IMG/VR virus record: IMGVR_UViG_2909298281_000002 | Strand: one strand, 5' to 3' | DNA: 43,281 bases | Source: a virus | Taxonomy: Duplodnaviria > Heunggongvirae > Uroviricota > Caudoviricetes | In this document: piece by piece, positions 1,445 to 43,054 of the stretch | How positions within the stretch are numbered: the first letter of the stretch is position 1 | Layout: each line of letters begins with the position of its first letter | The notes under the pieces: generated by a model | What the model saw: only the letters and a program-made list of their open reading frames with translations | What the model was told of the DNA's origin: nothing | Database searches by the model: none | Program-made: the position numbers and the translations under genes

Positions 1445-1460
1445 TTTAAATCAATAAGTT
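1400..1460. other. putative attL junction (3' end of thrW abutting the integrase gene)
   Basis: The integrase stop codon lies 15 nt after the tRNA CCA end. P22-type integrases recombine within the 3' part of thrW. Core limits cannot be set because no attR copy was found in the window. Confidence 0.4.
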
Positions 1461-2622
1461 ACACATCATTAGTACCTTCCTTATTTTTTGACTGGGACAA
1501 ATTTGGGACCGATGGGTTCAGAATCGAGTCTATTTGCCGTGCGTGTTCGGTAAGGTGATTAGGCGCGAGGTGAGCATATCGACGAACCATTTCGATAGAC
1601 TCCCAGCCACCCATTTCCTGTAACACTGACAACGGGACTCCGGCTTGAACCAGCCAACTTGCCCAGGTGTGTCTCAAGTCGTGAAATCTGAAATCATCAA
1701 TACCAGCTCGTCTCAGCGCCGCTTTCCAGGCTGTGTTTGCGTCATACCGCATCTTCCTTACTGTTGGCGCTTTCGTTCCGTCTGGTTTGGTACAGCTTTC
1801 CTTGTACACAAATACCCAACGGTGATGATTCCCGATTTGTTTTTTCAAAACGCGACATGCAGTATCATTCAGCGCAACGCCGATTGCGCGGTTTGATTTA
1901 CTCTCTTCCGGGTTTATCCATGCCACCCGGCGCTGCATATCTATTTGTTGCCATTCAAGGTTGATGATGTTCGAGCGTCTTAAACCTGTTGCCAGTGCAA
2001 ATTCAACAACAGACTTTAATGGCTCCGGACATTCATCAATCAGCCTTTGTGCTTCATGGGGCTCCAGCCAGCGGATCCGTTTATTCTTTGGTTGAGGCAC
2101 TTTAATAATTGGTGCCTTATCCAGCATTTTCCATTCACGCTCTGCGGCTCTTAGTAGGGCCTTTATAAATGAAAGATGCGTAGCCTTCGTTGCAACGGAC
2201 GCTGGTTTTGGCGTGTATTCTGGAACAGGTTTCCCTTTTTTTCTGCATGCTTCTGCCCTGAGTTTCCAGTTTTCCTCATGACGCCGGTTCGTCATTTTCT
2301 GCATTGCTGAATAAATTTTTGATTCAGTAATGTCTCTTAGTTGCATTCCTGCGAAATGTTGAAGCCAGAATCCGATCCGGCTTTTGTCATCGTCCAGTGA
2401 TTTTTTATGTGCTTTCTCTTCAAGCCACCTGACACACGCTTCCTCGAACGTTATATCAGGTATTTCACCAAGTTTGCTGACCCGCCATGCTTCAGCCTTT
2501 AGCTTGTCATGGAGTTCTGTCGCCTGCCTTTTGTCCTTTGTTCCAAGAGACTGTTTAAATCTTTTACCGTTCGGCAATGTGAAACTGGCGTACCATATTT
2601 CACCTCTGCGGAAGAGTGACAT
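1459..2622 (-). CDS. int: tyrosine site-specific integrase (P22-type)
   Basis: 387-aa ORF; near-identical over its length to the phage P22 integrase as I recall it (N-terminus [31 protein letters not shown]-terminal catalytic region with [10 protein letters not shown] and RYAHL); adjacent to thrW. Confidence 0.95.
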
Positions 2623-6091: not shown

Positions 6092-6766
6092 TTAGGCCTT
6101 TATTGTGTATCTTCTTGGTTTTCCCGAGAAAATCACTGTACCAATTATAGAGCAATTACCGTTAATCTTAATGTAAGGCTCAGGCCAGTTTGGGTTTAAT
6201 GCTTTGAGATAACGCTGTGTTCCATCTTCTATCAATCGCTTGAAGGTGGTTTCGCCTGTATCGTGCATCAATGCAATAACGTCGTCACCGTGGCAGGCAG
6301 GGACTTCGGGATCAACAAAAATCATGTCTCCAGGGCGGTACTCATCAATCATTGAATCACCAATCACCCGCAAGATATAAGTCATTTCGCCACAGGGTAC
6401 AGGGCAGGGGTACGTTTCTGCTGTGCTCAAATCAACCTCAGAATAGCCAACTTCTTTCCATGCTCCGGCCTGTACCCATGATATGACAGGGACTAACGTT
6501 ATTTGTTTGTTAGTGATTGAAACATCAGGTTTTTTTGTGATGTTCGTTGTCTGGTGTTCTTGATCAAGCCATCCGACAGGCAGGTCGAAACATTTTTCGA
6601 TGTGCCGTGCCATGCTGTCACCGATATTTTTAGTAGCGCCATCCCCCATAAACCTGCTGGTTTGGGTTGGCTCGCGATCAATCATGGTGGCAAAGGATGA
6701 ATTTCCGCCAACACCATCTCTCAGTTTTCTGGCGTTAGACCGCCGGATGTCATGGATTGTTTTCAT
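6092..6766 (-). CDS. cI: CI-type prophage repressor (HTH domain plus LexA-like S24 autopeptidase domain)
   Basis: 224 aa; N-terminal helix-turn-helix; Ala-Gly cleavage site (VQAGAWKE); Ser nucleophile in GDSM and a downstream Lys (TFKRL); divergent from cro across an operator-rich intergenic region; no Shine-Dalgarno, consistent with a leaderless PRM-type message. Confidence 0.9.
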   Translation of the reverse strand: MKTIHDIRRSNARKLRDGVGGNSSFATMIDREPTQTSRFMGDGATKNIGDSMARHIEKCFDLPVGWLDQEHQTTNITKKPDVSITNKQITLVPVISWVQAGAWKEVGYSEVDLSTAETYPCPVPCGEMTYILRVIGDSMIDEYRPGDMIFVDPEVPACHGDDVIALMHDTGETTFKRLIEDGTQRYLKALNPNWPEPYIKINGNCSIIGTVIFSGKPRRYTIKA

Positions 6767-6856
6767 AACGAAATTAAAACCTTTGTACCGATAAGGTACA
6801 AGTATCTTGAAGGTTCATTTCAATCATGTAATATGTATACCGTAGGTACATATTGT
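6767..6856. promoter_or_regulatory. immunity switch region (OR operators with divergent PRM and PR)
   Basis: Perfect palindrome TTGTACC-gataa-GGTACAA (6784–6802) and a second GTACA-containing site near 6832–6853; PR-like TTGAAG (6807–6812), 16-nt spacer, TAATAT (6829–6834) upstream of cro. Confidence 0.6.
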
Positions 6857-7057
6857 ATGAAAGCGTATTGGGACTCTTTAACCAAAGAACAGCAGGGCGA
6901 GTTGGCCGGAAAAGTTGGCTCAACACCTGGCTACTTACGGCTGGTTTTCAATGGTTATAAAAAAGCCAGTTTTGTGCTGGCGAAAAAACTTGAGCAATGC
7001 ACGTCAGGTGCAATTACGAAATCTGACTTAAGACCGGATATCTATCCGAAAGATTAA
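6857..7057 (+). CDS. cro: Cro-like helix-turn-helix regulator (YdaS/Cro family)
   Basis: 66-aa product from the ATG at 6857 (MKAYWDSLTKEQQGELAGKVGSTPGYLRL...); the track ORF from 6752 would overlap the cI start and operators. Divergent from cI. Confidence 0.8.
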   Translation: MKAYWDSLTKEQQGELAGKVGSTPGYLRLVFNGYKKASFVLAKKLEQCTSGAITKSDLRPDIYPKD

Positions 7058-7088: not shown

Positions 7089-7652
7089 ATGAGGCTAACC
7101 GTGGGTAAGTATCACTGGAAAGTAGAAAAACAGCCTGAGTGGTACGTGAAAGCTGTCAGAAAAACTATCGCAGCGTTGCCGGGTGGTTACGCTGAAGCAG
7201 CTGACTGGCTGGATGTAACAGAGAACGCATTATTTAACCGCCTTCGTGCCGATGGCGATCAGATTTTCCCGCTGGGATGGGCAATGGTTTTACAGCGCGC
7301 GGCTGGCACTCACTACATTGCGGATGCTGTCGCACAGTCTGCTGGTGGGGTGTTCGTATCGCTTCCTGAAATTGAGGAAGTAGAGAACGCCGATATAAAC
7401 CAGCGCCTGCTGGAAGTCATCGAACAGATCGGGAATTACTCAAAGCAGATTCGTTCGGCAATCGAAGATGGGGTCGTGGAGCCACACGAGCAGACAGCAA
7501 TTAATGATGAGTTGTATCTGTCAATTTCGAAGCTCCAAGAGCATGCAGCACTGGTCTACAAAATCTTTTGCGCTCCAGAAAAGAGTGACGCCCGCGAGTG
7601 TGCAGCTCCGGGCGTCGTGGCGTTTTGTGTCTGTGGAGAAACTAACGCATGA
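7089..7652 (+). CDS. early regulatory protein in the cII position (possibly YdaT/CII-like)
   Basis: 187-aa ORF directly after cro; family assignment is by position and weak recall only. Alternative GTG start at 7101 has a better Shine-Dalgarno (GAGG). Confidence 0.65.
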   Translation: MRLTVGKYHWKVEKQPEWYVKAVRKTIAALPGGYAEAADWLDVTENALFNRLRADGDQIFPLGWAMVLQRAAGTHYIADAVAQSAGGVFVSLPEIEEVENADINQRLLEVIEQIGNYSKQIRSAIEDGVVEPHEQTAINDELYLSISKLQEHAALVYKIFCAPEKSDARECAAPGVVAFCVCGETNA

Positions 7653-8485
7653 ACAGTTTAACGGCAAATAACCGTTTGTCGCAACAGCTGGTGGTCAGCG
7701 TCGCTGAACACCTGTTGTTACGGCATGAATGCAGATTACCAAATCACCTGGCTGTAAGTAACCACAGAGAACTTTACCTGACTGTGGGGGGCGAGTTGTG
7801 CAGGAACTTAACCGCTGGTTTAGTGACGGAAGAGGACTTTATGTTCATGTTATTCGTTGGGAGCCAGAAACACAGCGCGTTATCTATCTTCGCAAAGACT
7901 ACCCGCATGAGTGCTTTAGTCCTTTGTGGAAATTCAGGCGTGATTTTATTGAGTGTGAAGGACCACCAGCACATTGATTCTGCCATTCCGGGACGTTACA
8001 CTGTTCAGGCACCTTATAAAGCGGGTGCCGGGATTGGCGTCCTGGAATTGATCAAGGCGATATATGACGCGCCAGCGTCTTTTTTATCGTCCGCATTTGC
8101 TCACATCAAAGTTATGGTGGGCTGGGCGGGGGCATCGAAAGATGCGCCGGTTTCCTTGATCACCGGTTACGCCAACCCCGTTCAGTTCACCACCAGCGAA
8201 ATTGGCGTTTCCGGTGGTGGAAGTATTTCACCGATCAAGGAGGCTGCCATCATGGCTACTGTCCCAGCCCTCACTCGTCTGAATGATGAAGACTTACATA
8301 AACTCAGTTATGTAACAACAGCACTACGTGCTCTGCGCAAGGTAACTCTTTCAGATCCGCAGGCGCATCAACTTCTGGTAGAAACCCTTCTTAACTTGCA
8401 GGCTGAACGTATTCGTTTGGCGGATAAGGCTAATCTTCATATTCACCGTCTCCTGAATATCAGCGGAGGGCATCGTCATGCTTAA
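7649..8485 (+). CDS. hypothetical replication-region protein
   Basis: 278-aa ORF; ATG overlaps the upstream stop (ATGA), indicating translational coupling; no motif recognised. Confidence 0.65.
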   Translation: MNSLTANNRLSQQLVVSVAEHLLLRHECRLPNHLAVSNHRELYLTVGGELCRNLTAGLVTEEDFMFMLFVGSQKHSALSIFAKTTRMSALVLCGNSGVILLSVKDHQHIDSAIPGRYTVQAPYKAGAGIGVLELIKAIYDAPASFLSSAFAHIKVMVGWAGASKDAPVSLITGYANPVQFTTSEIGVSGGGSISPIKEAAIMATVPALTRLNDEDLHKLSYVTTALRALRKVTLSDPQAHQLLVETLLNLQAERIRLADKANLHIHRLLNISGGHRHA

Positions 8486-8714
8486 TCCGTTGATCCTCAA
8501 TATTCACCGTTTACTTCAGCGTAAAAAAATATCAATTCCTACAGTTGGGCAGTGGTACACCACACCTGCAGGGCATGTTCTACGTGTTAGCCTGGTTGAC
8601 CGTGAATGCCAGAAGGTGATTTGTGAACCGCTTGGCCGTAATTACCGCGTCAGTATGCCGCTTATAGCCTTTCGCTCCGGAAAAAACATGAAGCATCTCG
8701 GAGGTGCAGCATGA
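8478..8714 (+). CDS. hypothetical small protein
   Basis: 78-aa ORF with GGAGGG Shine-Dalgarno 8 nt upstream, overlapping both neighbouring genes at start and stop. Confidence 0.55.
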   Translation: MLNPLILNIHRLLQRKKISIPTVGQWYTTPAGHVLRVSLVDRECQKVICEPLGRNYRVSMPLIAFRSGKNMKHLGGAA

Positions 8715-9529
8715 GTATGGAGCTGATGGTTAAAGCGATGAAAATTCGAGTGGGTAATCCATTGCGAAAACTGGTTCTGATCAAGCTGGCTGATAATGCC
8801 AGCGATCAGGGTGAGTGCTGGCCCAGCTACCAGCATATTGCTGACCAGTGCGAGATTAGCAAACGTTCTGTGATGAATCATATTGCGGCCCTTTGTGAGT
8901 CCGGGCTGGTAAAAAAAGTCACCCGGAAAGGTGAAAAAGGTAACTCAAGTAATATCTATCTCCTTCATCTGGATGGTGCAGGAGATTCACTAGGGGGTAG
9001 TGCAAATAATTCACTATCTGGTGCAGCAAATTCACCAGGTAGTGCAGGAGTTGCACTAGGGGGTAGTGCAGGAGATTCACCCAGAACCAGTCACTCTTTT
9101 GAACCAGTCAAAGAACCAGTCAATGAACCAATAGCTGTTGGTGCATCTGCTGATGAGTCTGTGCGAGTTCGTTCAAACCGACCGGAATACTCTCCGGAGT
9201 TTGAGCAGGCATGGCTGGCATATCCCAAACGTGCTGGTGGCAATTCAAAATCTGCAGCCTTCAAAGCCTGGAAAGCCCGTTTGAATGAGGGGGTAAACCC
9301 CGAAACCATGCTGGAAGGTGTGAAACGCTATGCGGGCTGGGTATCTGCGATGGGTAACAGCGGCACACAATTTGTGAAACAGGCTGTCACGTTCTTTGGT
9401 CCGGATCGTCATTTCGAAGAATCCTGGGAAGTTCCTGCGGTATCTGCAGCCAGACGTGAGGACCCGTACTTCAAAGCCAGTTACGACAACGTGGACTACA
9501 GCCAGATCCCGGCAGGATTCAGGGGGTGA
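8711..9529 (+). CDS. replication initiation protein (O-like, N-terminal HTH domain) containing the origin iterons
   Basis: 272 aa; N-terminal winged-HTH replication-initiator-like region (LVLIKLADNASDQGECWPSYQHIADQCEISKRSVMNHIAAL); GGAGGTG Shine-Dalgarno; internal low-complexity linker encoded by direct DNA repeats, as in lambda O. Confidence 0.8.
   Translation: MSMELMVKAMKIRVGNPLRKLVLIKLADNASDQGECWPSYQHIADQCEISKRSVMNHIAALCESGLVKKVTRKGEKGNSSNIYLLHLDGAGDSLGGSANNSLSGAANSPGSAGVALGGSAGDSPRTSHSFEPVKEPVNEPIAVGASADESVRVRSNRPEYSPEFEQAWLAYPKRAGGNSKSAAFKAWKARLNEGVNPETMLEGVKRYAGWVSAMGNSGTQFVKQAVTFFGPDRHFEESWEVPAVSAARREDPYFKASYDNVDYSQIPAGFRG
8976..9131. repeat. putative origin of replication: five about 15-bp iterons plus three GAACCAGTCA repeats
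   Basis: Iterons GTGCAGGAGATTCAC and variants at 8976, 9000, 9021, 9042 and 9066, spaced 21–24 bp; then GAACCAGTCA at 9084, 9101 and 9113; all inside the initiator gene. Confidence 0.7.
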
Positions 9530-9531
9530 TC

Positions 9532-10020
9532 ATGAGTCTTTTGAATGAAGTTCAGAAATTCATTGAAGCCCATCCGGGGTGTACTTCCGGAGACATTGCG
9601 GATGCTTTTGCAGGTTACTCACGGCAGCGCGTTCTGCAGTCAGCAAGCAAGTTACGTCAGAGTGGGCGTGTGGCTCACCGTTGTGAAGGGGATACACGCA
9701 GACATTTCCCGCGCCAGACAAAGATATCGCCGGAGGCGGAACGGCAACCAGTTCGTGAAACCAGACCTGTGCGCAATTTCTATGTCGGCACTAACGACCC
9801 GCGGGAGATTTTATGCCTGACCCGCCAGGCTGAAGAACTGGAGTCCAGGGGCTTATACCGTCGTGCTGCAACGGTGTGGATGGCGGCATTCCGTGAAAGC
9901 CACTCCCAGCCAGAACGAAACAATTTTCTGGCGCGTCGTGAGCAGTGTTTACGGAAAAGCAGCAAGCGCGCTGTATCGAGTGATGAGTGGTATCTGTCAG
10001 GGAATTACGTGGGGGCGTAA
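9532..10020 (+). CDS. PerC-like transcriptional regulator with N-terminal wHTH-like region
   Basis: 162 aa from the ATG at 9532 (AGGGGG Shine-Dalgarno). C-terminal region LYRRAATVWMAAF...RREQCL fits the PerC/Pch family signature as I recall it. No Walker motif, so not a helicase loader. Confidence 0.6.
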   Translation: MSLLNEVQKFIEAHPGCTSGDIADAFAGYSRQRVLQSASKLRQSGRVAHRCEGDTRRHFPRQTKISPEAERQPVRETRPVRNFYVGTNDPREILCLTRQAEELESRGLYRRAATVWMAAFRESHSQPERNNFLARREQCLRKSSKRAVSSDEWYLSGNYVGA

Positions 10021-10346
10021 TGACGACGTTAACTCAATGCCAGCAGCAGGTGCTGGATATGCTGATTTCTTACCAGAAAGAGCGTGGCTTTCCGCCAACC
10101 AATCAGGAGGTGGCAACCATGCTGGGATACCGTTCGGTGAATGCAGCGGTGGAGCATCTTCGCGCACTGGAGAAAAAAGGCGTCATCACGATAAAGCGTG
10201 GTGTGGCCCGGGGGATCACGCTTCATACCGCGGTGAAGGACGACGACAGCGAGGCGGTCGGGATTATCCGCTCACTGCTTGCCGGTGAGGAAAACGCAAG
10301 GCTGCGTGCAACTCACTGGTTACATGAGAGAGGCCTGAAAGTATGA
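10020..10346 (+). CDS. LexA-family DNA-binding-domain protein lacking the peptidase domain
   Basis: 108 aa from the ATG at 10020 (TAATG overlap, GGGGG upstream). Aligns by eye to LexA residues 1–90 (MTTLTQCQQQVLDML..GFPPTNQEVATMLGYRSVNAAVEHLRALEKKGVI...ARGITL) and keeps an Ala-Gly (LLAGEEN), but ends before any S24 catalytic domain. Confidence 0.75.
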   Translation: MTTLTQCQQQVLDMLISYQKERGFPPTNQEVATMLGYRSVNAAVEHLRALEKKGVITIKRGVARGITLHTAVKDDDSEAVGIIRSLLAGEENARLRATHWLHERGLKV

Positions 10347-10732
10347 AGCTGATCCTGCCTTTCCCGCCCAGCGTGAACACCTACTGGCGACACCCCAACA
10401 AAGGGGCATTTGCTGGTAAGAGCCTGATAAGCGCGGCGGGGCGAAAATTTCAGAGCGCGGCGTGCGCAGCAATAGTTGAGCAGTTACGTCGTCTGCCAAA
10501 ACCAACGTCGGCACCTGCTTCAGTGGAGATCGTGTTGTTTCCTCCGGATAACCGGATCCGCGATCTGGACAACTATAACAAGGCGCTGTTTGACGCCCTG
10601 ACCCACGCGGGTGTGTGGGAAGACGACAGCCAGGTGAAAAGAATGCTGGTGGAGTGGGGACCGGTTATCCCGGAAGGGAAGGTCGAGATCACTATCAGTA
10701 AGTACGAGAAAACGGCGGGTGCAGCCGCCTGA
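10343..10732 (+). CDS. rusA: Holliday-junction resolvase RusA
   Basis: 129 aa; RusA-family pattern (PPSVNTYWRH ... RDLDNYNKALFDALTHAGVWEDDSQV); usual position between the replication genes and Q. Confidence 0.9.
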   Translation: MKLILPFPPSVNTYWRHPNKGAFAGKSLISAAGRKFQSAACAAIVEQLRRLPKPTSAPASVEIVLFPPDNRIRDLDNYNKALFDALTHAGVWEDDSQVKRMLVEWGPVIPEGKVEITISKYEKTAGAAA

Positions 10733-10751
10733 TTAAGAGGAGAAACGAAGT

Positions 10752-11549
10752 ATGAATAATCTGATGGTTATTGATGGTATTGAAGTTCGTCGTGATGCTT
10801 ATGGGCGTTACAGCCTGAACGATCTGCACAGGGCTGCTGGTTCTCTGGATAAGCATAAGCCTGCATTCTGGCTCCGCAATGAGCAAACTGAACGTTTAAT
10901 AAGCGAGTTGCAGATTTGCAACTCGGTCAATATAGAACCAGTTAACGTTATTCGTGGCGGAAATAACCAGGGGACGTATGTCTGCAAAGAACTGGTGTAT
11001 GCCTATGCAATGTGGATCAGCCCGTCATTCCATCTGAAGGTGATCCGTACTTTCGACATGGTAACCAGTGCACCGGAAAAATTATCCGGACAGGCTGCTG
11101 ACAAGATGCAGGCTGGTGTGATTCTGCTGGACTTTATGCGCCGGGAATTAAACCTGTCTAACTCTTCAGTGCTTGGAGCCTGTCAGAAACTCCAGGAGGC
11201 TGTTGGCTTACCGAATCTGGCACCGCGCTATGCCATTGATGCTCCTGCTGACGCGCCTGATGGCTCAAGCCGCCCCACGCTGTCACTGAGTGCACTGCTG
11301 AAGCAGTATGGTATCCGCCTGACAGCTAATCAGGCATATCACCAGATGGTGAAGCTGGGGATCGTCGAGCAGCGCGAACGATACAGTCGTACCGCGATTA
11401 ACAACATCAAAAAATTCTGGTCGCTGACAGCGAAAGGCTGCATGTTCGGCAAGAACATCACCAGTCCCGCAAATCCGCGCGAGACGCAGCCGCATTTCTT
11501 CGAATCCCGATTCCCTGAGCTGTTAAAGCTGCTCGATACCGTACATTGA
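10752..11549 (+). CDS. KilA-N domain protein (antirepressor-like)
   Basis: 265 aa with N-terminal KilA-N-like region (IDGIEVRRDAYGRYSLNDLHRAAG...KPAFWLRNEQTERLISEL); AAGAGGAG Shine-Dalgarno. Confidence 0.8.
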   Translation: MNNLMVIDGIEVRRDAYGRYSLNDLHRAAGSLDKHKPAFWLRNEQTERLISELQICNSVNIEPVNVIRGGNNQGTYVCKELVYAYAMWISPSFHLKVIRTFDMVTSAPEKLSGQAADKMQAGVILLDFMRRELNLSNSSVLGACQKLQEAVGLPNLAPRYAIDAPADAPDGSSRPTLSLSALLKQYGIRLTANQAYHQMVKLGIVEQRERYSRTAINNIKKFWSLTAKGCMFGKNITSPANPRETQPHFFESRFPELLKLLDTVH

Positions 11550-11556
11550 GGTGATC

Positions 11557-12546
11557 GTGAGAGCACTACTGACCCCTGAAATTGCCCCGCGTATGGGGAT
11601 CGTATTGTTCAGACCAGGTTCAGAGCTGATGCCCCTATTTATGCAGGGGCGTGTCCTGCTGGAGCCTGAGCCGGAACGTTATTCATCTTTCGCCAGTGGT
11701 GCCGTTCCGGCGGCATCACAACCGCTGGCGGATGATCCTGCCGTTCGGGCCGTGTTCCGCAATGAGGCAGTGATCCGTCGTGCTGGTGGCGTGGAATGTC
11801 TTGAAAGCTGGTTACTTCGTGAAAAAGGCTGTCAGTGGCCTCATTCCGACTGGCACAGCGAGAACATGACCACAATGCGACATGCTCCGGGCGCAATCCG
11901 TCTGTGCTGGCACTGCGATAACCAGCTGCGCGATCAATTCACGGAACGGCTGGAATCAATGGCAACGGATAACTGTGCCCGCTGGGTGTTGTCTGTCGTG
12001 CGTCGGGATCTCGGTTTTGATGATAGTCACGTTGTGACAATGCCGGAACTGTGCTGGTGGCTGATTCGTAATGACCTGGCGGATGCCTTACCGGAAAGTG
12101 CAGCCCGTAAGGCACTTAGATTACCGAAGCCTGTTGTGCCGTCTGCTACCCGGGAAAGTGACCTTGTGCCTTCGGTTCCTGCCACCAGCATCATCCAGGA
12201 TAAAGCGAAAAAGGTGCTGGCGCTGAAAGTGGATCCTGAGTCGCCGGAGTCTTTTATGTTACGCCCAAAACGTCGCCGCTGGGTTAATGAAAAGTACACG
12301 CGCTGGGTTAAGACACAGCCGTGTGCATGTTGTGGAAAGCCCGCTGATGATCCCCACCACCTGATAGGTCACGGTCAGGGTGGAATGGGTACAAAAGCGC
12401 ATGATCTCTTTGTGTTGCCTTTGTGCAGAAAGCATCACGACGAGCTGCATGCGGATACCGTGGCATTTGAAGAGAAGTATGGCTCCCAGCTGGAGCTGAT
12501 ATTTCGTTTTATCGATCGTGCGCTGGCAATTGGCGTGCTGGCCTGA
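11557..12546 (+). CDS. DUF968-domain protein (YdfU-like, Cys/His-rich C-terminus)
   Basis: C-terminal CACCGK...HHLIGHGQGG...CRKHHDELH motif typical of DUF968 proteins. Start uncertain: GTG at 11557 has GAGG 6 nt upstream; the track uses GTG at 11551. Confidence 0.75.
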   Translation: MRALLTPEIAPRMGIVLFRPGSELMPLFMQGRVLLEPEPERYSSFASGAVPAASQPLADDPAVRAVFRNEAVIRRAGGVECLESWLLREKGCQWPHSDWHSENMTTMRHAPGAIRLCWHCDNQLRDQFTERLESMATDNCARWVLSVVRRDLGFDDSHVVTMPELCWWLIRNDLADALPESAARKALRLPKPVVPSATRESDLVPSVPATSIIQDKAKKVLALKVDPESPESFMLRPKRRRWVNEKYTRWVKTQPCACCGKPADDPHHLIGHGQGGMGTKAHDLFVLPLCRKHHDELHADTVAFEEKYGSQLELIFRFIDRALAIGVLA

Positions 12547-12575
12547 TTTTGTGGAGAATTTTGTGGAGAAGGTTG

Positions 12576-12926
12576 ATGCGTGATATGTATGAAGTATTGG
12601 ACCTCTGGGGAGCATGGGCTGCAGCAGATAACAGTGGTGTGGACTGGCAGCCTGTTGCTGCAGGGTTTAAAGGTTTACTACCTCATGGAAAGAAAACACG
12701 CCAACAATGCGATGATGATGAAGGAATCATGATTGACAGCTGTGTTGCGCGATTGCGGAAATATAAGCCAGAAGAATATGAACTGATCATTGCTCACTTT
12801 GTTATCGGTATTTCACTCCGTTCAATAGCAAAGAAACGGAAATGCTCTGACGGGTCAATCAGAAAACAACTTCAAGCAGCAATAGGAGTGATTGAAGGTA
12901 TTTTGTTGATTATTAAGCCCCTGTAG
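12576..12926 (+). CDS. late-gene antiterminator Q (QuuD-like)
   Basis: 116 aa from the ATG at 12576 (GGAGAAGG Shine-Dalgarno); LDLWGAWAAADNSGVDWQPVAAGFKGL...CDDDEG pattern matches the DLP12 QuuD-type family as recalled. Confidence 0.85.
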   Translation: MRDMYEVLDLWGAWAAADNSGVDWQPVAAGFKGLLPHGKKTRQQCDDDEGIMIDSCVARLRKYKPEEYELIIAHFVIGISLRSIAKKRKCSDGSIRKQLQAAIGVIEGILLIIKPL

Positions 12927-12934
12927 GGCTTAAT
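12912..12934. terminator. convergent-gene hairpin ATTAAGCCC-ctgta-GGGCTTAAT spanning the stops of Q and the cassette membrane gene
   Basis: Perfect 9-bp inverted repeat seen directly; no U-run on either side, so terminator function is uncertain. Confidence 0.35.
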
Positions 12935-13514
12935 AATTCATATGAATTCTGTTTCCGAGATAATATAATCCAAAGAAAGTTGATACTAAGAGTTGCCAAA
13001 CGAGGAAAGTAAATACAACAGTATAAACCATTAAAACAATACTGTTTTGATAGACATTGATTAATGGTGAAAATATAGCATTAAGTATTATTATAACAAT
13101 GCTTAATGCTGTTAAAAAAGAGAATAGCATGCAAAGAAATAAGCGTCTGGTCAGAACCTCCTCTGAATTTACTACTTTTCCATTTTCTTTTGTTACTTTT
13201 ATTTCAATAGAGGCATTTCTTTCATTGCTAATCAATGGTAAATCAATCTCAGCTCTATTGAAAGTTGCTATGGCGGCCAGAGCGGCAATATAAAACCCTG
13301 GTAGGTTAGAGATAAATGAAACGATTGATTTAATGAAACCATTGTCATCAAATAAATCTTTGACAGGGATTTTTAATAGAATGAAAAGTACTGCTGTGAT
13401 AGAAGTAAGTAGAATTGGTGCTACCCAATCATATGCAGCTTTGCCGCTAATACCTTTAATAAAAAGATATCCAAACGGCTTGCCTAGATGAGAGAAAACT
13501 GAAAGTATTGGCAT
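12930..13514 (-). CDS. predicted four-helix integral membrane protein (second gene of the accessory cassette)
   Basis: 194 aa; ATG with GAGG 8 nt upstream, 7 nt after the upstream stop; four hydrophobic segments (about residues 25–47, 60–85, 125–150, 155–185); about 30% GC against about 50% for the flanking phage DNA. Confidence 0.8.
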   Translation of the reverse strand: MPILSVFSHLGKPFGYLFIKGISGKAAYDWVAPILLTSITAVLFILLKIPVKDLFDDNGFIKSIVSFISNLPGFYIAALAAIATFNRAEIDLPLISNERNASIEIKVTKENGKVVNSEEVLTRRLFLCMLFSFLTALSIVIIILNAIFSPLINVYQNSIVLMVYTVVFTFLVWQLLVSTFFGLYYLGNRIHMNY

Positions 13515-13521
13515 AATAACC

Positions 13522-14544
13522 TCACATCAAATCTATCATTTTCACAACAAACTCTAGTTCAATTTTAACATATGAATCCTTCAGGCGCGAATTAAAGTTA
13601 TCGATAATGCTTTTCTTAATAAATGTTTTTTCTAAATTATTAAGATTGATGTTTGAGGTTTTGAAATCAACCTGCCTTGGTTTATTTGTTTCAGGATCTT
13701 GGAATTTAACCTTTAATTTATCATAACCACCATTCATTTTTTTATTGAAATGAGATGCTACATTTTTAATCCATCCAATAACATTGTCACCATGATTTGG
13801 AAGTAATTTTAATGTACTTTCAGTCGGAATGTAAGGTGAATTAACATCAGGAGCATTAATTGTTCCGAATTGATCCTTGACTAATATGACATCTGATAAT
13901 CCTTTTTGGCTTATTTTATTAAAAAGCTCCTTGTCTAACATTCCTGTAAATTCAAATATTGGTTTGTATCGTATTTTTACTTCTTTTTTTGATGTTGTAG
14001 AAATAACGTTAGTTGGATGTTTTGCGGTAAATAAGTCTTCATTGTCTTTCGCTACTTCAAAGAGAATTTTGTCTAAAAAACTATTTAACCGGGCCGTAGA
14101 TACACCTGGGGTAGATGTACAAATCATATCATAGGTTCTTTTATTTCCATTTAATGATATGACAACATAGGTAGAAACTTCATAGCCTTCACCTTGTTCA
14201 TATTTTGGTTGGATTTCAACGCGTTCATTAGTATTTGTATTTTTTACAACGGTAGTACTTCCATTTTTATCAACACTATTAATAAGAAGGACAATATGCG
14301 TGGGTGAGTTATCTGGAAGTAAAGGATAAAGTTGTACATCTTGGAGAGTAACTACAATATTCCCAGAATCATATGAATGAACGAGTCCCTTTTGTTTAAC
14401 AATCAATGGGGCAAGCATGTACATTTCCGGAACAGGACATATACACTGGGCTTTTACCTCTTGTGTTGCCTTGGTTCTAAACTTTGTGTCAATGGTCAGA
14501 CTATGATGAGTAACGAGTCTTTCGCTAGCATTTAATTTTGCCAT
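13522..14544 (-). CDS. hypothetical soluble protein (first gene of the accessory cassette), no recognisable domain
   Basis: 340-aa ORF, ATG at 14544; no Walker, HxD or nuclease motif seen; Lys/Asn-rich and AT-rich codon usage; tightly coupled to the downstream membrane gene. Confidence 0.8.
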   Translation of the reverse strand: MAKLNASERLVTHHSLTIDTKFRTKATQEVKAQCICPVPEMYMLAPLIVKQKGLVHSYDSGNIVVTLQDVQLYPLLPDNSPTHIVLLINSVDKNGSTTVVKNTNTNERVEIQPKYEQGEGYEVSTYVVISLNGNKRTYDMICTSTPGVSTARLNSFLDKILFEVAKDNEDLFTAKHPTNVISTTSKKEVKIRYKPIFEFTGMLDKELFNKISQKGLSDVILVKDQFGTINAPDVNSPYIPTESTLKLLPNHGDNVIGWIKNVASHFNKKMNGGYDKLKVKFQDPETNKPRQVDFKTSNINLNNLEKTFIKKSIIDNFNSRLKDSYVKIELEFVVKMIDLM

Positions 14545-41727: not shown

Positions 41728-42310
41728 CTTTATCAATGACTTATCTCCCGACTTCCCGCCTTGCTTTTCCTAAACAGAACAATCGTAGAATATTCTTGAA
41801 GGGTTAGATCGTCACTGTTTTCTGTTCGATACTGTGACATTCAGCACTTGATTCGCTATGGATCTGACAGGAAGGTTTCGAGCGAAAATCTGCAGTTATT
41901 CAGTCGTTTTCTTATCGGTCACCATTATTCTTTTAGACATTGATCCTACAAAGCTGCCGCAAAGTTGGTGGTGGGAACTGAAGTTGCGTAGAGAAGGGGT
42001 CAATACCCGGAGGCAAACATGGGCTGGCAAAAGTGTAGCGGTATTAGGCGCAGCTATTTAGCCTAGTTATGTTTTATGAAAACTTGATATCATATAAGTG
42101 TCTTACTTATTGGCTGTAAATAAGGTTTTCTAAGGAATTGTTTCTTTAGTATCATTTGTAACTGTAACGGAATTTATAATCCTTTACTTTATTTTTACGG
42201 TGTTTTTTATCACACCCTATTTTTTATGTGGTTTTTTATACTGAAGTTTGGCAAAGTGAACTTTATATGCATATACTTCATCCTGGTTTCAGTTAAATTG
42301 GGTGGATGAT

Positions 42311-43054
42311 ATGGCAACTACATGTTCAGTTATATTGATTTTGGAGCCCTTTGATGTTTATTTCGGAAAAGAGAGTGTGTTTCTGGATAGAGGTTTATCT
42401 GTACTTGTCGACTCTAGCTATAGAGATTTTTTCCTGACATATCCTGAAAGAGTGATAGTGGCGGATTTTGGCGCTGAGTTTATTAGTCGCTATTTGAAAG
42501 CTAATAACTTAAGGGATATTTCTGATTGTAGGGAATATCCATCTTATTTAAAAATAAACTTTGCTGACTTCAGTTTAATTAAAGGATTAATTAGTTGGGC
42601 TAATCACTGTGCTGAATATATAGAAATTTTTGATGAGTCTATTGCTTTTACATGTCTCTCTGCATTTTCTTCTGAAAAACAATTTGGAGTATTTCTGTTT
42701 GGATGTTTGAAAAGCACAGGGGCTAAAGTTAAAACGATTATTCATACGGATTTATCTGCACCATGGCATCTTAAGGATATATCATCAAGATTATATCTCA
42801 GCGAAAGTTTACTAAAGAGGAAATTGAAAGAAGAGGGGGTATCATTCAGTAAGATCCTACTTGATGAGAGGATGCAAATGGCTGAATATTTACTCAGCAC
42901 TCGTTGTTATCCTATTAGTAAAGTAGCTAAGGTCTGTGGTTATGCCAGTGTCTCATACTTTACTTATGTATTTAGACGTTATTTTGGTGTTTCTCCAAGT
43001 CAATACTCTCAGAGGAGTTCAGAAAGTAAAATTCTTACTCACCAGGGAATCTAA
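42311..43054 (+). CDS. AraC/XylS-family transcriptional regulator (AppY/EnvY/GadX-like)
   Basis: 247 aa from the ATG at 42311 (the track start is a GTG at 42302); C-terminal AraC-type double HTH (WHLKDISSRLYLSESLLKRKLKEEGVSFSKILLDERMQMAEYLL...YASVSYFTYVFRRYFGVSPSQY); lies in very AT-rich DNA. Confidence 0.8.
   Translation: MATTCSVILILEPFDVYFGKESVFLDRGLSVLVDSSYRDFFLTYPERVIVADFGAEFISRYLKANNLRDISDCREYPSYLKINFADFSLIKGLISWANHCAEYIEIFDESIAFTCLSAFSSEKQFGVFLFGCLKSTGAKVKTIIHTDLSAPWHLKDISSRLYLSESLLKRKLKEEGVSFSKILLDERMQMAEYLLSTRCYPISKVAKVCGYASVSYFTYVFRRYFGVSPSQYSQRSSESKILTHQGI

Follow-up and report, generated by a model that had tools for sequence, protein, structure and literature searches.

A YfdN-type PerC-domain gene in the helicase-loader slot of a lambdoid prophage probably does not replace the loader

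A gene of the YfdN type, coding for a predicted winged helix joined to a PerC domain, directly follows the replication initiator gene of a lambdoid prophage, at the position taken by DnaC-like genes in homologous modules. The reading that we favour, and consider reasonably likely, is that its product acts as an accessory early-phase regulator, and that the adjoining replicon is of the initiator-only kind and uses DnaB and DnaC of the host. The window (the whole stretch of DNA that was analysed, 43,281 nucleotides) represents an entire lambdoid prophage, inserted at the Thr(CGU) tRNA gene adjoining proA, with an early region of the SfV/e14/CPS-53 type and the following features:

6092-6766, minus strand: cI-like repressor
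6752-7057, plus strand: Cro/YdaS-like protein (ORF counted from its first start codon; in relatives the annotated cro has 66 aa)
7089-7652, plus strand: CII/YmfL-like protein
7649-8485, plus strand: Ash-family protein of 278 aa (PF10554, E=1.2e-18)
8478-8714, plus strand: 78-aa protein with no assigned function
8711-9529, plus strand: replication initiator of the YfdO/SfV orf39 type, 272 aa, with HTH_36, a low-complexity linker, a DnaD-like domain and a tail
8976-9080, plus strand: five iterons GTGCA-N5-TKCAC, starting at 8976, 9000, 9021, 9042 and 9066
9458-9526, plus strand: variable tail of the initiator, aa 250-272
9506-9526, plus strand: codons of the C-terminal heptapeptide IPAGFRG (initiator end ...DYSQIPAGFRG)
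9521-9526, plus strand: Shine-Dalgarno sequence AGGGGG of the yfdN-like gene, as read from the sequence
9532-10020, plus strand: yfdN-like gene, 162 aa, predicted winged helix plus PerC domain
9532-9711, plus strand: predicted winged-helix domain, aa 1-60 (AlphaFold2 order helix-helix-helix-strand-strand, pLDDT ~78-89)
9799-9972, plus strand: PerC domain, aa 90-147 (AlphaFold2 helices 90-105, 109-122 and 126-147, pLDDT ~90)
10020-10346, plus strand: 108-aa protein with only a LexA DNA-binding domain (Pfam LexA_DNA_bind, E=2.9e-19)
10343-12926, plus strand: RusA, KilA-N, DUF968/HNH and Q

The yfdN-like open reading frame runs from an ATG at 9532 to a stop codon at 10018-10020, giving 162 aa; PGAP starts the gene at a GTG at 9526, giving 164 aa. 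We favour the ATG because of the N-terminus MSL, which is conserved across the family, and because of the placement of the Shine-Dalgarno sequence. The initiator stop codon (TGA, 9527-9529) leaves a gap of only 2 nt, in agreement with the first-pass annotation, which had described a 162-aa protein directly after the initiator. In distant relatives the initiator stop and the YfdN-like start overlap as ATGA, and the arrangement is consistent with translational coupling of the two genes. The yfdN-like gene is flanked by no promoter-like or terminator-like signal and appears to belong to the early-right operon, its transcription included. At the other end, its stop codon overlaps the start of the LexA-domain gene (TAATG). 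Many relatives carry dam between these two genes; dam is missing from the window, and the LexA-domain gene therefore stands directly after yfdN.

Both the gene and its family assignment are already known. In the PGAP annotation the gene is called yfdN, with the product ‘PerC family transcriptional regulator’, and proteins 98% identical to this product bear the same label. It is an ordinary prophage gene and very common in E. coli prophages, K-12 included; 3,939 of 5,426 complete E. coli genomes match part of the 7-kb early region in which it lies. A dN/dS of 0.23-0.38 against orthologues indicates that purifying selection acts on the sequence. Its GC content of 55% is normal, unlike that of a typical AT-rich cargo gene; the cargo region of the window (12930-14544) has 29-36% GC. 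The right end of the same prophage encodes an AraC-family YdeO-like regulator.

Membership in the PerC family is supported by a Pfam match to PF06069 over aa 98-152 (E=6.5e-10, 39.6 bits against a gathering score of 22.6), which covers model positions 5-59 of 90. The PerC/Pch-like C-terminal signature described earlier (GLYRRAATVWMAAF...ARREQCL) lies at aa 107-140, and the PerC similarity is statistically sound. More distant full-length YfdN relatives scored 26.0 and 18.9 bits with the same model. Over its full length (aa 1-161) the protein matches PHROG 1324, annotated as ‘transcriptional activator’ (E=4e-76). The NCBIfam model ANR_neg_reg (NF033650) gave a sub-threshold score at aa 96-142 (23.1 bits against a cut-off of 32, E=4.9e-5), which suggests a related helical motif and not family membership.

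An AlphaFold2 model built with 24 homologues (mean pLDDT 76) places a disordered linker at aa 63-83, between the two domains, and a disordered C-terminal end that bears the conserved motif YL[AS]G[NR][YF]VG. Foldseek aligned the N-terminal domain with winged helices of ArsR, MarR, BlaI and DsrD over 56-66 residues (rmsd 1.5-2.9 Å), with a probability of 1.0 and weak E-values of 0.03-0.15. A PHROG match of aa 6-59 to MarR was weak, and no Pfam winged-helix model matched the protein. As modelled, the YfdN-like protein would combine a putative DNA-binding winged helix with a C-terminal three-helix PerC domain. A HMMER search of 1.84 billion representative proteins returned 178 members of the YfdN family at E<=1e-3, only ~30-40 of them full-length two-domain proteins, and the two-domain subfamily is therefore small. 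The YfdN-like protein thus represents a distinct two-domain PerC subfamily, PHROG 1324. Sequence searches of the PDB with YfdN and with the initiator gave nothing useful, and YfdN had no match in the PADLOC library of defence systems.

The K-12 protein YfdN (b2357, cryptic prophage CPS-53/KpLE1) is 91% identical over 162 aa, and SfV Orf40 (91%) and ST64B Sb43 (67%) are likewise full-length orthologues. In K-12, SfV and ST64B the gene order is initiator (yfdO, orf39 or sb42), YfdN gene and dam (yfdM), whereas the window lacks dam. The C-terminal PerC domain is shared with PerC of the EPEC plasmid pEAF and PchA-E of EHEC prophages, which are also carried on mobile elements. Group-1 Pch are PerC-only proteins. 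PerC and PchA-C are single-domain proteins of ~90-105 aa, whereas the YfdN-like protein reaches 162 aa with its winged helix, linker and C-terminal motif; moreover, YfdN-type genes, unlike those of Pch and PerC, are found inside the replication/early operon. Members of the ANR family have a single domain and ~60 aa, and bind H-NS as well as regulators of the AraC type; the small helical domain of members such as Aar resembles aa 96-142 of YfdN below the cut-off. Pch binds DNA at many loci and activates by displacing H-NS, StpA and Hha (PMC4764244). The group-1 Pch genes measure 315 bp (PMC5931665), PchD and PchE have other targets and are weak on ler (PMC5931665, PMC6265319), and yfdN has been referred to as ‘the K12 unique PerC homologue’ (PMC5931665).

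The suspected absence of a P- or DnaC-type loader from the replication module was confirmed across the window. Profile searches of the early ORFs with Pfam, NCBIfam and PHROG gave no match to DnaC/IstB, DnaB or lambda P, and tblastn with six reference phage loader or helicase proteins and lambda P gave no hit in the window; the phage loaders used for comparison, which served as positive control, do match IstB_IS21. The 278-aa protein, which had been suspected of being a divergent loader, belongs to the Ash family. For the YfdN-like protein itself, said earlier to have no Walker motif, Pfam, NCBIfam and PHROG returned no Walker-type or AAA+ match. Profile comparison of the YfdN family by hhalign gave probabilities of 0.3% against lambda P and 0.6% against the DnaC-like protein of POCJ13, and lambda P had no tblastn match in the window or at any YfdN locus. 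Since the module encodes neither a phage loader nor a phage helicase, the replicon must use DnaB and DnaC of the host.

The initiator carries an N-terminal HTH_36 winged helix (Pfam, E=1.8e-11) and matches PHROG 270, ‘replication initiation protein’ (E=2e-88). Its aa 147-249 match PHROG 1701, annotated as ‘DnaD-like helicase loader’ (E=1e-32), and its C-terminal domain also matches a PHROG with the annotation label ‘primosomal protein’. SfV orf39 is 99% identical to it. All five iterons fall within the initiator gene, where it codes for the linker. On both strands taken together their pattern occurs nine times in the window, six of these in the 105-bp stretch 8976-9080, against an expected 0.32 for the window, and nine matches were reached in none of 100 shuffles. 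This stretch is probably the origin, in a layout like that of lambda, where the ori iterons lie inside gene O. Initiator-only replicons of phages and plasmids likewise have a single initiator, iterons in its own gene and no loader or helicase, and the initiator of the window differs from theirs by the added DnaD-like C-terminal domain and IPxGFRG tail. Plasmid initiators recruit DnaB directly.

The proposal that the yfdN-like gene stands where a loader gene is normally found is borne out by homologous modules, which hold a DnaC-like gene at this position in phiP27, Stx2_95, AsXd-1, POCJ13 and ST13-OXA48phi12.4. In phiP27, Stx2_95 and the Aeromonas phage AsXd-1, the gene after a homologous initiator is an IstB-type DnaC-like gene, and a DnaB-like gene comes next; initiators of this kind are 57-58% identical to that of the window over the C-terminal region, and that of AsXd-1 is 69% identical over its full length. 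Among 80 viral contigs with this initiator domain, a recognisable DnaC-like gene directly follows the initiator in 61, and a DnaB-like gene lies ~0.9 kb downstream in all 79 contigs with enough sequence. Initiators that precede DnaC-like and DnaB-like genes end in other tails, e.g. ...SEQDYGQSDCNW or ...SSDKLTF, and not in IPxGFRG.

Scanning viral contigs for the tail pattern yielded 108 long ORFs that end in IPxGFRG; E. coli dominates this sample, and its loci are phylogenetically non-independent. The next gene is YfdN-like in 66 of them and DnaC-like in 18, the latter without a DnaB-like gene, and dam follows directly in ten; eight have no ORF of >=60 aa starting close by, four are followed by another gene and two by the contig end. 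The isolated phages POCJ13 and ST13-OXA48phi12.4 have a tail-bearing initiator followed by a DnaC-like gene. Altogether 245 loci carry a YfdN-like gene (34-100% identity) immediately 3' of an initiator, overlapping it or 2 nt apart, and span at least four initiator architectures, one of them with a lambda-O-like C-terminal domain; there is also a YfdN-like gene behind a tail-less initiator. The scan of genome contigs for YfdN-like genes contributed 5 loci only. The first scans of viral contigs gave near-identical E. coli loci only, and subfamily alignments of distant members were used instead, one of which (A3) held no searchable conserved stretch.

No locus with both a full-length YfdN-like and a DnaC-like gene was found. 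Ten loci that seemed to carry both gave weak matches (22-27 bits) to the winged helix alone, and they were discarded because the protein concerned has 256 aa, two winged helices and no PerC domain. As judged from gene order, the slot of the YfdN-like gene corresponds to the loader slot of homologous modules, and YfdN-like and DnaC-like genes appear to be its alternative occupants. Lambda P and the DnaC-like (IstB/AAA+) loaders of phages take the same coupled position after the initiator as yfdN, but YfdN has neither sequence or profile similarity to them nor an ATPase fold.

It is the initiator tail, and not YfdN, that varies with the helicase genes of the phage. The IPxGFRG tail is correlated with the lack of a phage DnaB gene, and this implies that host DnaB is used. 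The tail is conserved at the protein level with synonymous codon differences and terminates at least four initiator architectures: HTH_36 with the DnaD-like domain, HTH_36 with a lambda-O-like C-terminal domain (E=8e-26 against lambda O), another N-terminal domain with the lambda-O-like C-terminal domain, and Phg_2220_C types with or without HTH_36. A role of the tail as a YfdN-specific docking site was rejected, given that it is unchanged upstream of dam and DnaC-like genes, and is also contradicted by the YfdN-like gene behind a tail-less initiator. The notion that the tail is conserved merely as Shine-Dalgarno sequence for the downstream gene holds only in part. AGGGG does lie in the FRG codons, but this is not enough because I-P-x-G is kept through synonymous changes.

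Modules of this kind also occur without YfdN. In widespread prophages of Enterobacter and E. coli, dam directly follows a homologous initiator that shares the tail (PVDTKIPEGFRG); these initiators are 62% identical to a Klebsiella initiator that precedes a YfdN-like gene, and two such proteins are found in 242 and 61 blocks of the collection. Searches with the family HMM in six-frame translation revealed no YfdN-like gene within 4-5 kb in those prophages, and no DnaC or DnaB gene was found in them. Likewise, the complete genome of phage cdtI (NC_009514), described as an inducible lambdoid prophage, has kept initiator and tail, and an internal deletion has reduced its yfdN to a remnant of 31 codons (MSLLNEVQKFIEAHPGCTSGDIADAF-YVGD*). 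Phage cdtI is reportedly infective. The deletion allele is present in at least eight complete E. coli genomes (single-piece matches with 100% coverage), a lower bound since the junction search joins separate pieces and only these eight matches are certain. Prophages without yfdN could be defective. Nevertheless, as the module is found without yfdN or any loader, yfdN is not needed to explain the missing loader; the gene is probably dispensable for the module, and YfdN probably does not replace a loader. Of the first-pass annotation, the PerC domain, the absence of a loader and the position in a loader slot thus stand, whereas the gene proved to be known, common and not required to account for the replicon.

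As we picture it, the predicted winged helix of the YfdN-like protein would target DNA, and its PerC domain would probably relieve silencing of the H-NS type by analogy with its relative Pch. Phage or prophage-borne AT-rich genes would be the likely targets, and the AT-rich cargo at 12930-14544 is a candidate. Replication would be driven by the initiator alone, which would bind the five iterons inside its own gene and recruit the host DnaB-DnaC via its DnaD-like C-terminal domain and the IPxGFRG tail. Since yfdN has no promoter of its own and is coupled into a repressed early operon, YfdN is expected in lytic growth and not in the lysogen.

So strict a linkage of YfdN and initiator would be expected of functional partners rather than of a free-standing regulator. 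YfdN-like proteins might be replication accessories that attach to the initiator or origin and capture host DnaB or deliver it, i.e. a non-AAA+ functional analogue of lambda P and the DnaC-like loaders, helpful and not strictly essential. The coupled position in all 245 loci with their several architectures, the slot shared with DnaC-like genes after IPxGFRG initiators (66 vs 18 of 108) and the absence of loci with both full-length genes would fit such a role. Many partner initiators also have the lambda-O-like C-terminal domain; this domain of lambda O binds P, and P itself has no Walker motif. Still, we hold this role to be very unlikely: modules with the same tail exist without YfdN and without any loader, phage cdtI carries a deletion in yfdN, a tail-less initiator, too, precedes a YfdN-like gene, profile comparison shows no similarity to lambda P or DnaC, and the predicted winged helix and PerC domain point to a family with a demonstrated transcriptional role. 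The conserved position alone is weak evidence because these phages are syntenic over the entire early region. Very unlikely to the same degree is a regulator of the replicon itself, which would bind the iteron/origin region or the initiator and tune initiation with no action on the helicase, perhaps by switching on transcription across the origin or by copy-number control. A predicted DNA-binding winged helix, tight coupling to the initiator gene and iterons only ~450 bp upstream speak for it, but no conserved YfdN-specific DNA motif was identified and the module exists without yfdN. Further, nearly identical YfdN proteins go with initiators whose N-terminal DNA-binding domains, and hence probably iterons, differ, which speaks against specificity for one origin.

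A transcription factor directed at virulence or adhesion loci of the host (LEE, curli), comparable to PchA-C and PchE, was the other function suggested earlier, and we consider it unlikely, if less so than a direct part in replication. It draws on the membership in the PerC family, on prophage-encoded Pch that regulate ler and on PchE that represses csgD (PMC5931665, PMC6265319), on the altered glycogen content upon yfdN overexpression in an ASKA library screen (PMC2853380), and on the YdeO-like regulator at the right end of the prophage. On the other hand, yfdN is coupled inside a repressed early operon with no promoter- or terminator-like signal at its flanks, its GC content is atypical for AT-rich cargo, PchD and PchE, which do not belong to group 1, barely activate ler, and the gene is common across E. 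coli genomes including K-12. We therefore retain the accessory early-phase regulator beside an initiator-only replicon as the preferred explanation.

For the biology of phage replication, the useful outcome is the pattern of tail and slot. Homologous initiators carry exchangeable C-terminal tails, and the type of tail tracks what follows the gene: other tails are followed by DnaC-like and DnaB-like genes, IPxGFRG by a DnaC-like gene, a YfdN-like gene or nothing. Were YfdN-like proteins replication accessories after all, the PerC fold would be a module for protein recruitment and not purely a transcription factor, and the YfdN type would be a previously unrecognised non-ATPase accessory that captures host DnaB together with IPxGFRG initiators. 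If YfdN acts in transcription, as in our preferred reading of an early-phase regulator, it would be a member from the phage lytic cycle of a family known mainly from virulence regulation.

In phage cdtI (NC_009514; locus L256, 5001-5096), an internal deletion leaves 26 N-terminal codons of yfdN followed by YVGD*, and the annotated start of the RefSeq dam CDS falls within this remnant; this allele is also present in at least eight complete E. coli genomes. In phage POCJ13 (L343) and in similar loci, the DnaC-like gene is immediately followed by one (4118-4888 in L343) whose 256-aa product has a pair of winged helices in tandem, which bear a weak likeness to the YfdN winged helix (22-27 bits), and the PerC domain is absent from this protein in L343 and the similar loci. 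Four proteins of 234 aa (P0025, P0032, P0034, P0038) fuse the HTH_36 N-terminus of the initiator to the PerC region of YfdN, and these are probably deletion products of decaying prophages.

Further features of the window:

10020-10346, plus strand: gene for a 108-aa protein with a LexA DNA-binding domain only (PF01726, E=2.9e-19)
12930-14544, minus strand: two-gene AT-rich cargo (29-36% GC) between Q and the lysis genes
42302-43054, plus strand: AraC-family regulator, YdeO/GadX-like, at the prophage's right-hand end (NCBIfam E=7e-43, below cut-off)
1-1254: proA, left flank
1369-1444: tRNA-Thr(CGU) gene, left flank
1459-2622, minus strand: integrase gene, adjoining the left flank (1-1444)

The gene for the LexA-domain protein is conserved beside yfdN or dam across this phage group. 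The protein lacks the S24 peptidase domain and would be a LexA-like binder that is not cleavable. For the cargo, PADLOC gives matches to PDC-M53, a candidate defence system (M53B, E=1.8e-54; M53A, E=1.6e-32). AraC regulators are functionally linked elsewhere with PerC- and ANR-type proteins. The combination of proA and a Thr tRNA gene is presumably the thrW attachment site of SfV-type phages.

Within the initiator gene, the part coding for the low-complexity linker contains a repeat region that, together with the repeats 3' of it, is probably the origin:

8976-9080: iterons GTGCA-N5-TKCAC, five copies at 21-24 bp spacing
9083-9122: three AGAACCAGTCA repeats, 3' of the iterons

This layout of iterons within the initiator gene resembles that of lambda. 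In the commonest E. coli initiators 5' of yfdN (L017, 5057-5998; L042, 5006-5998), the C-terminal domain is a homologue of the lambda O one (E=8e-26). The domain binds P in lambda, and no P gene follows the lambda-O-like initiators of L017 and L042. The heptapeptide IPxGFRG forms the conserved C-terminal end of replication initiators of at least four domain architectures (window, tail codons at 9458-9526; comparison loci L004, L005, L017, L042, L251, L343 and L345). Homologous initiators upstream of phage DnaC-like plus DnaB-like genes end differently, for example in ...SDCNW or ...DKLTF. The IPxGFRG tail may be a motif that recruits a host factor, possibly DnaB.
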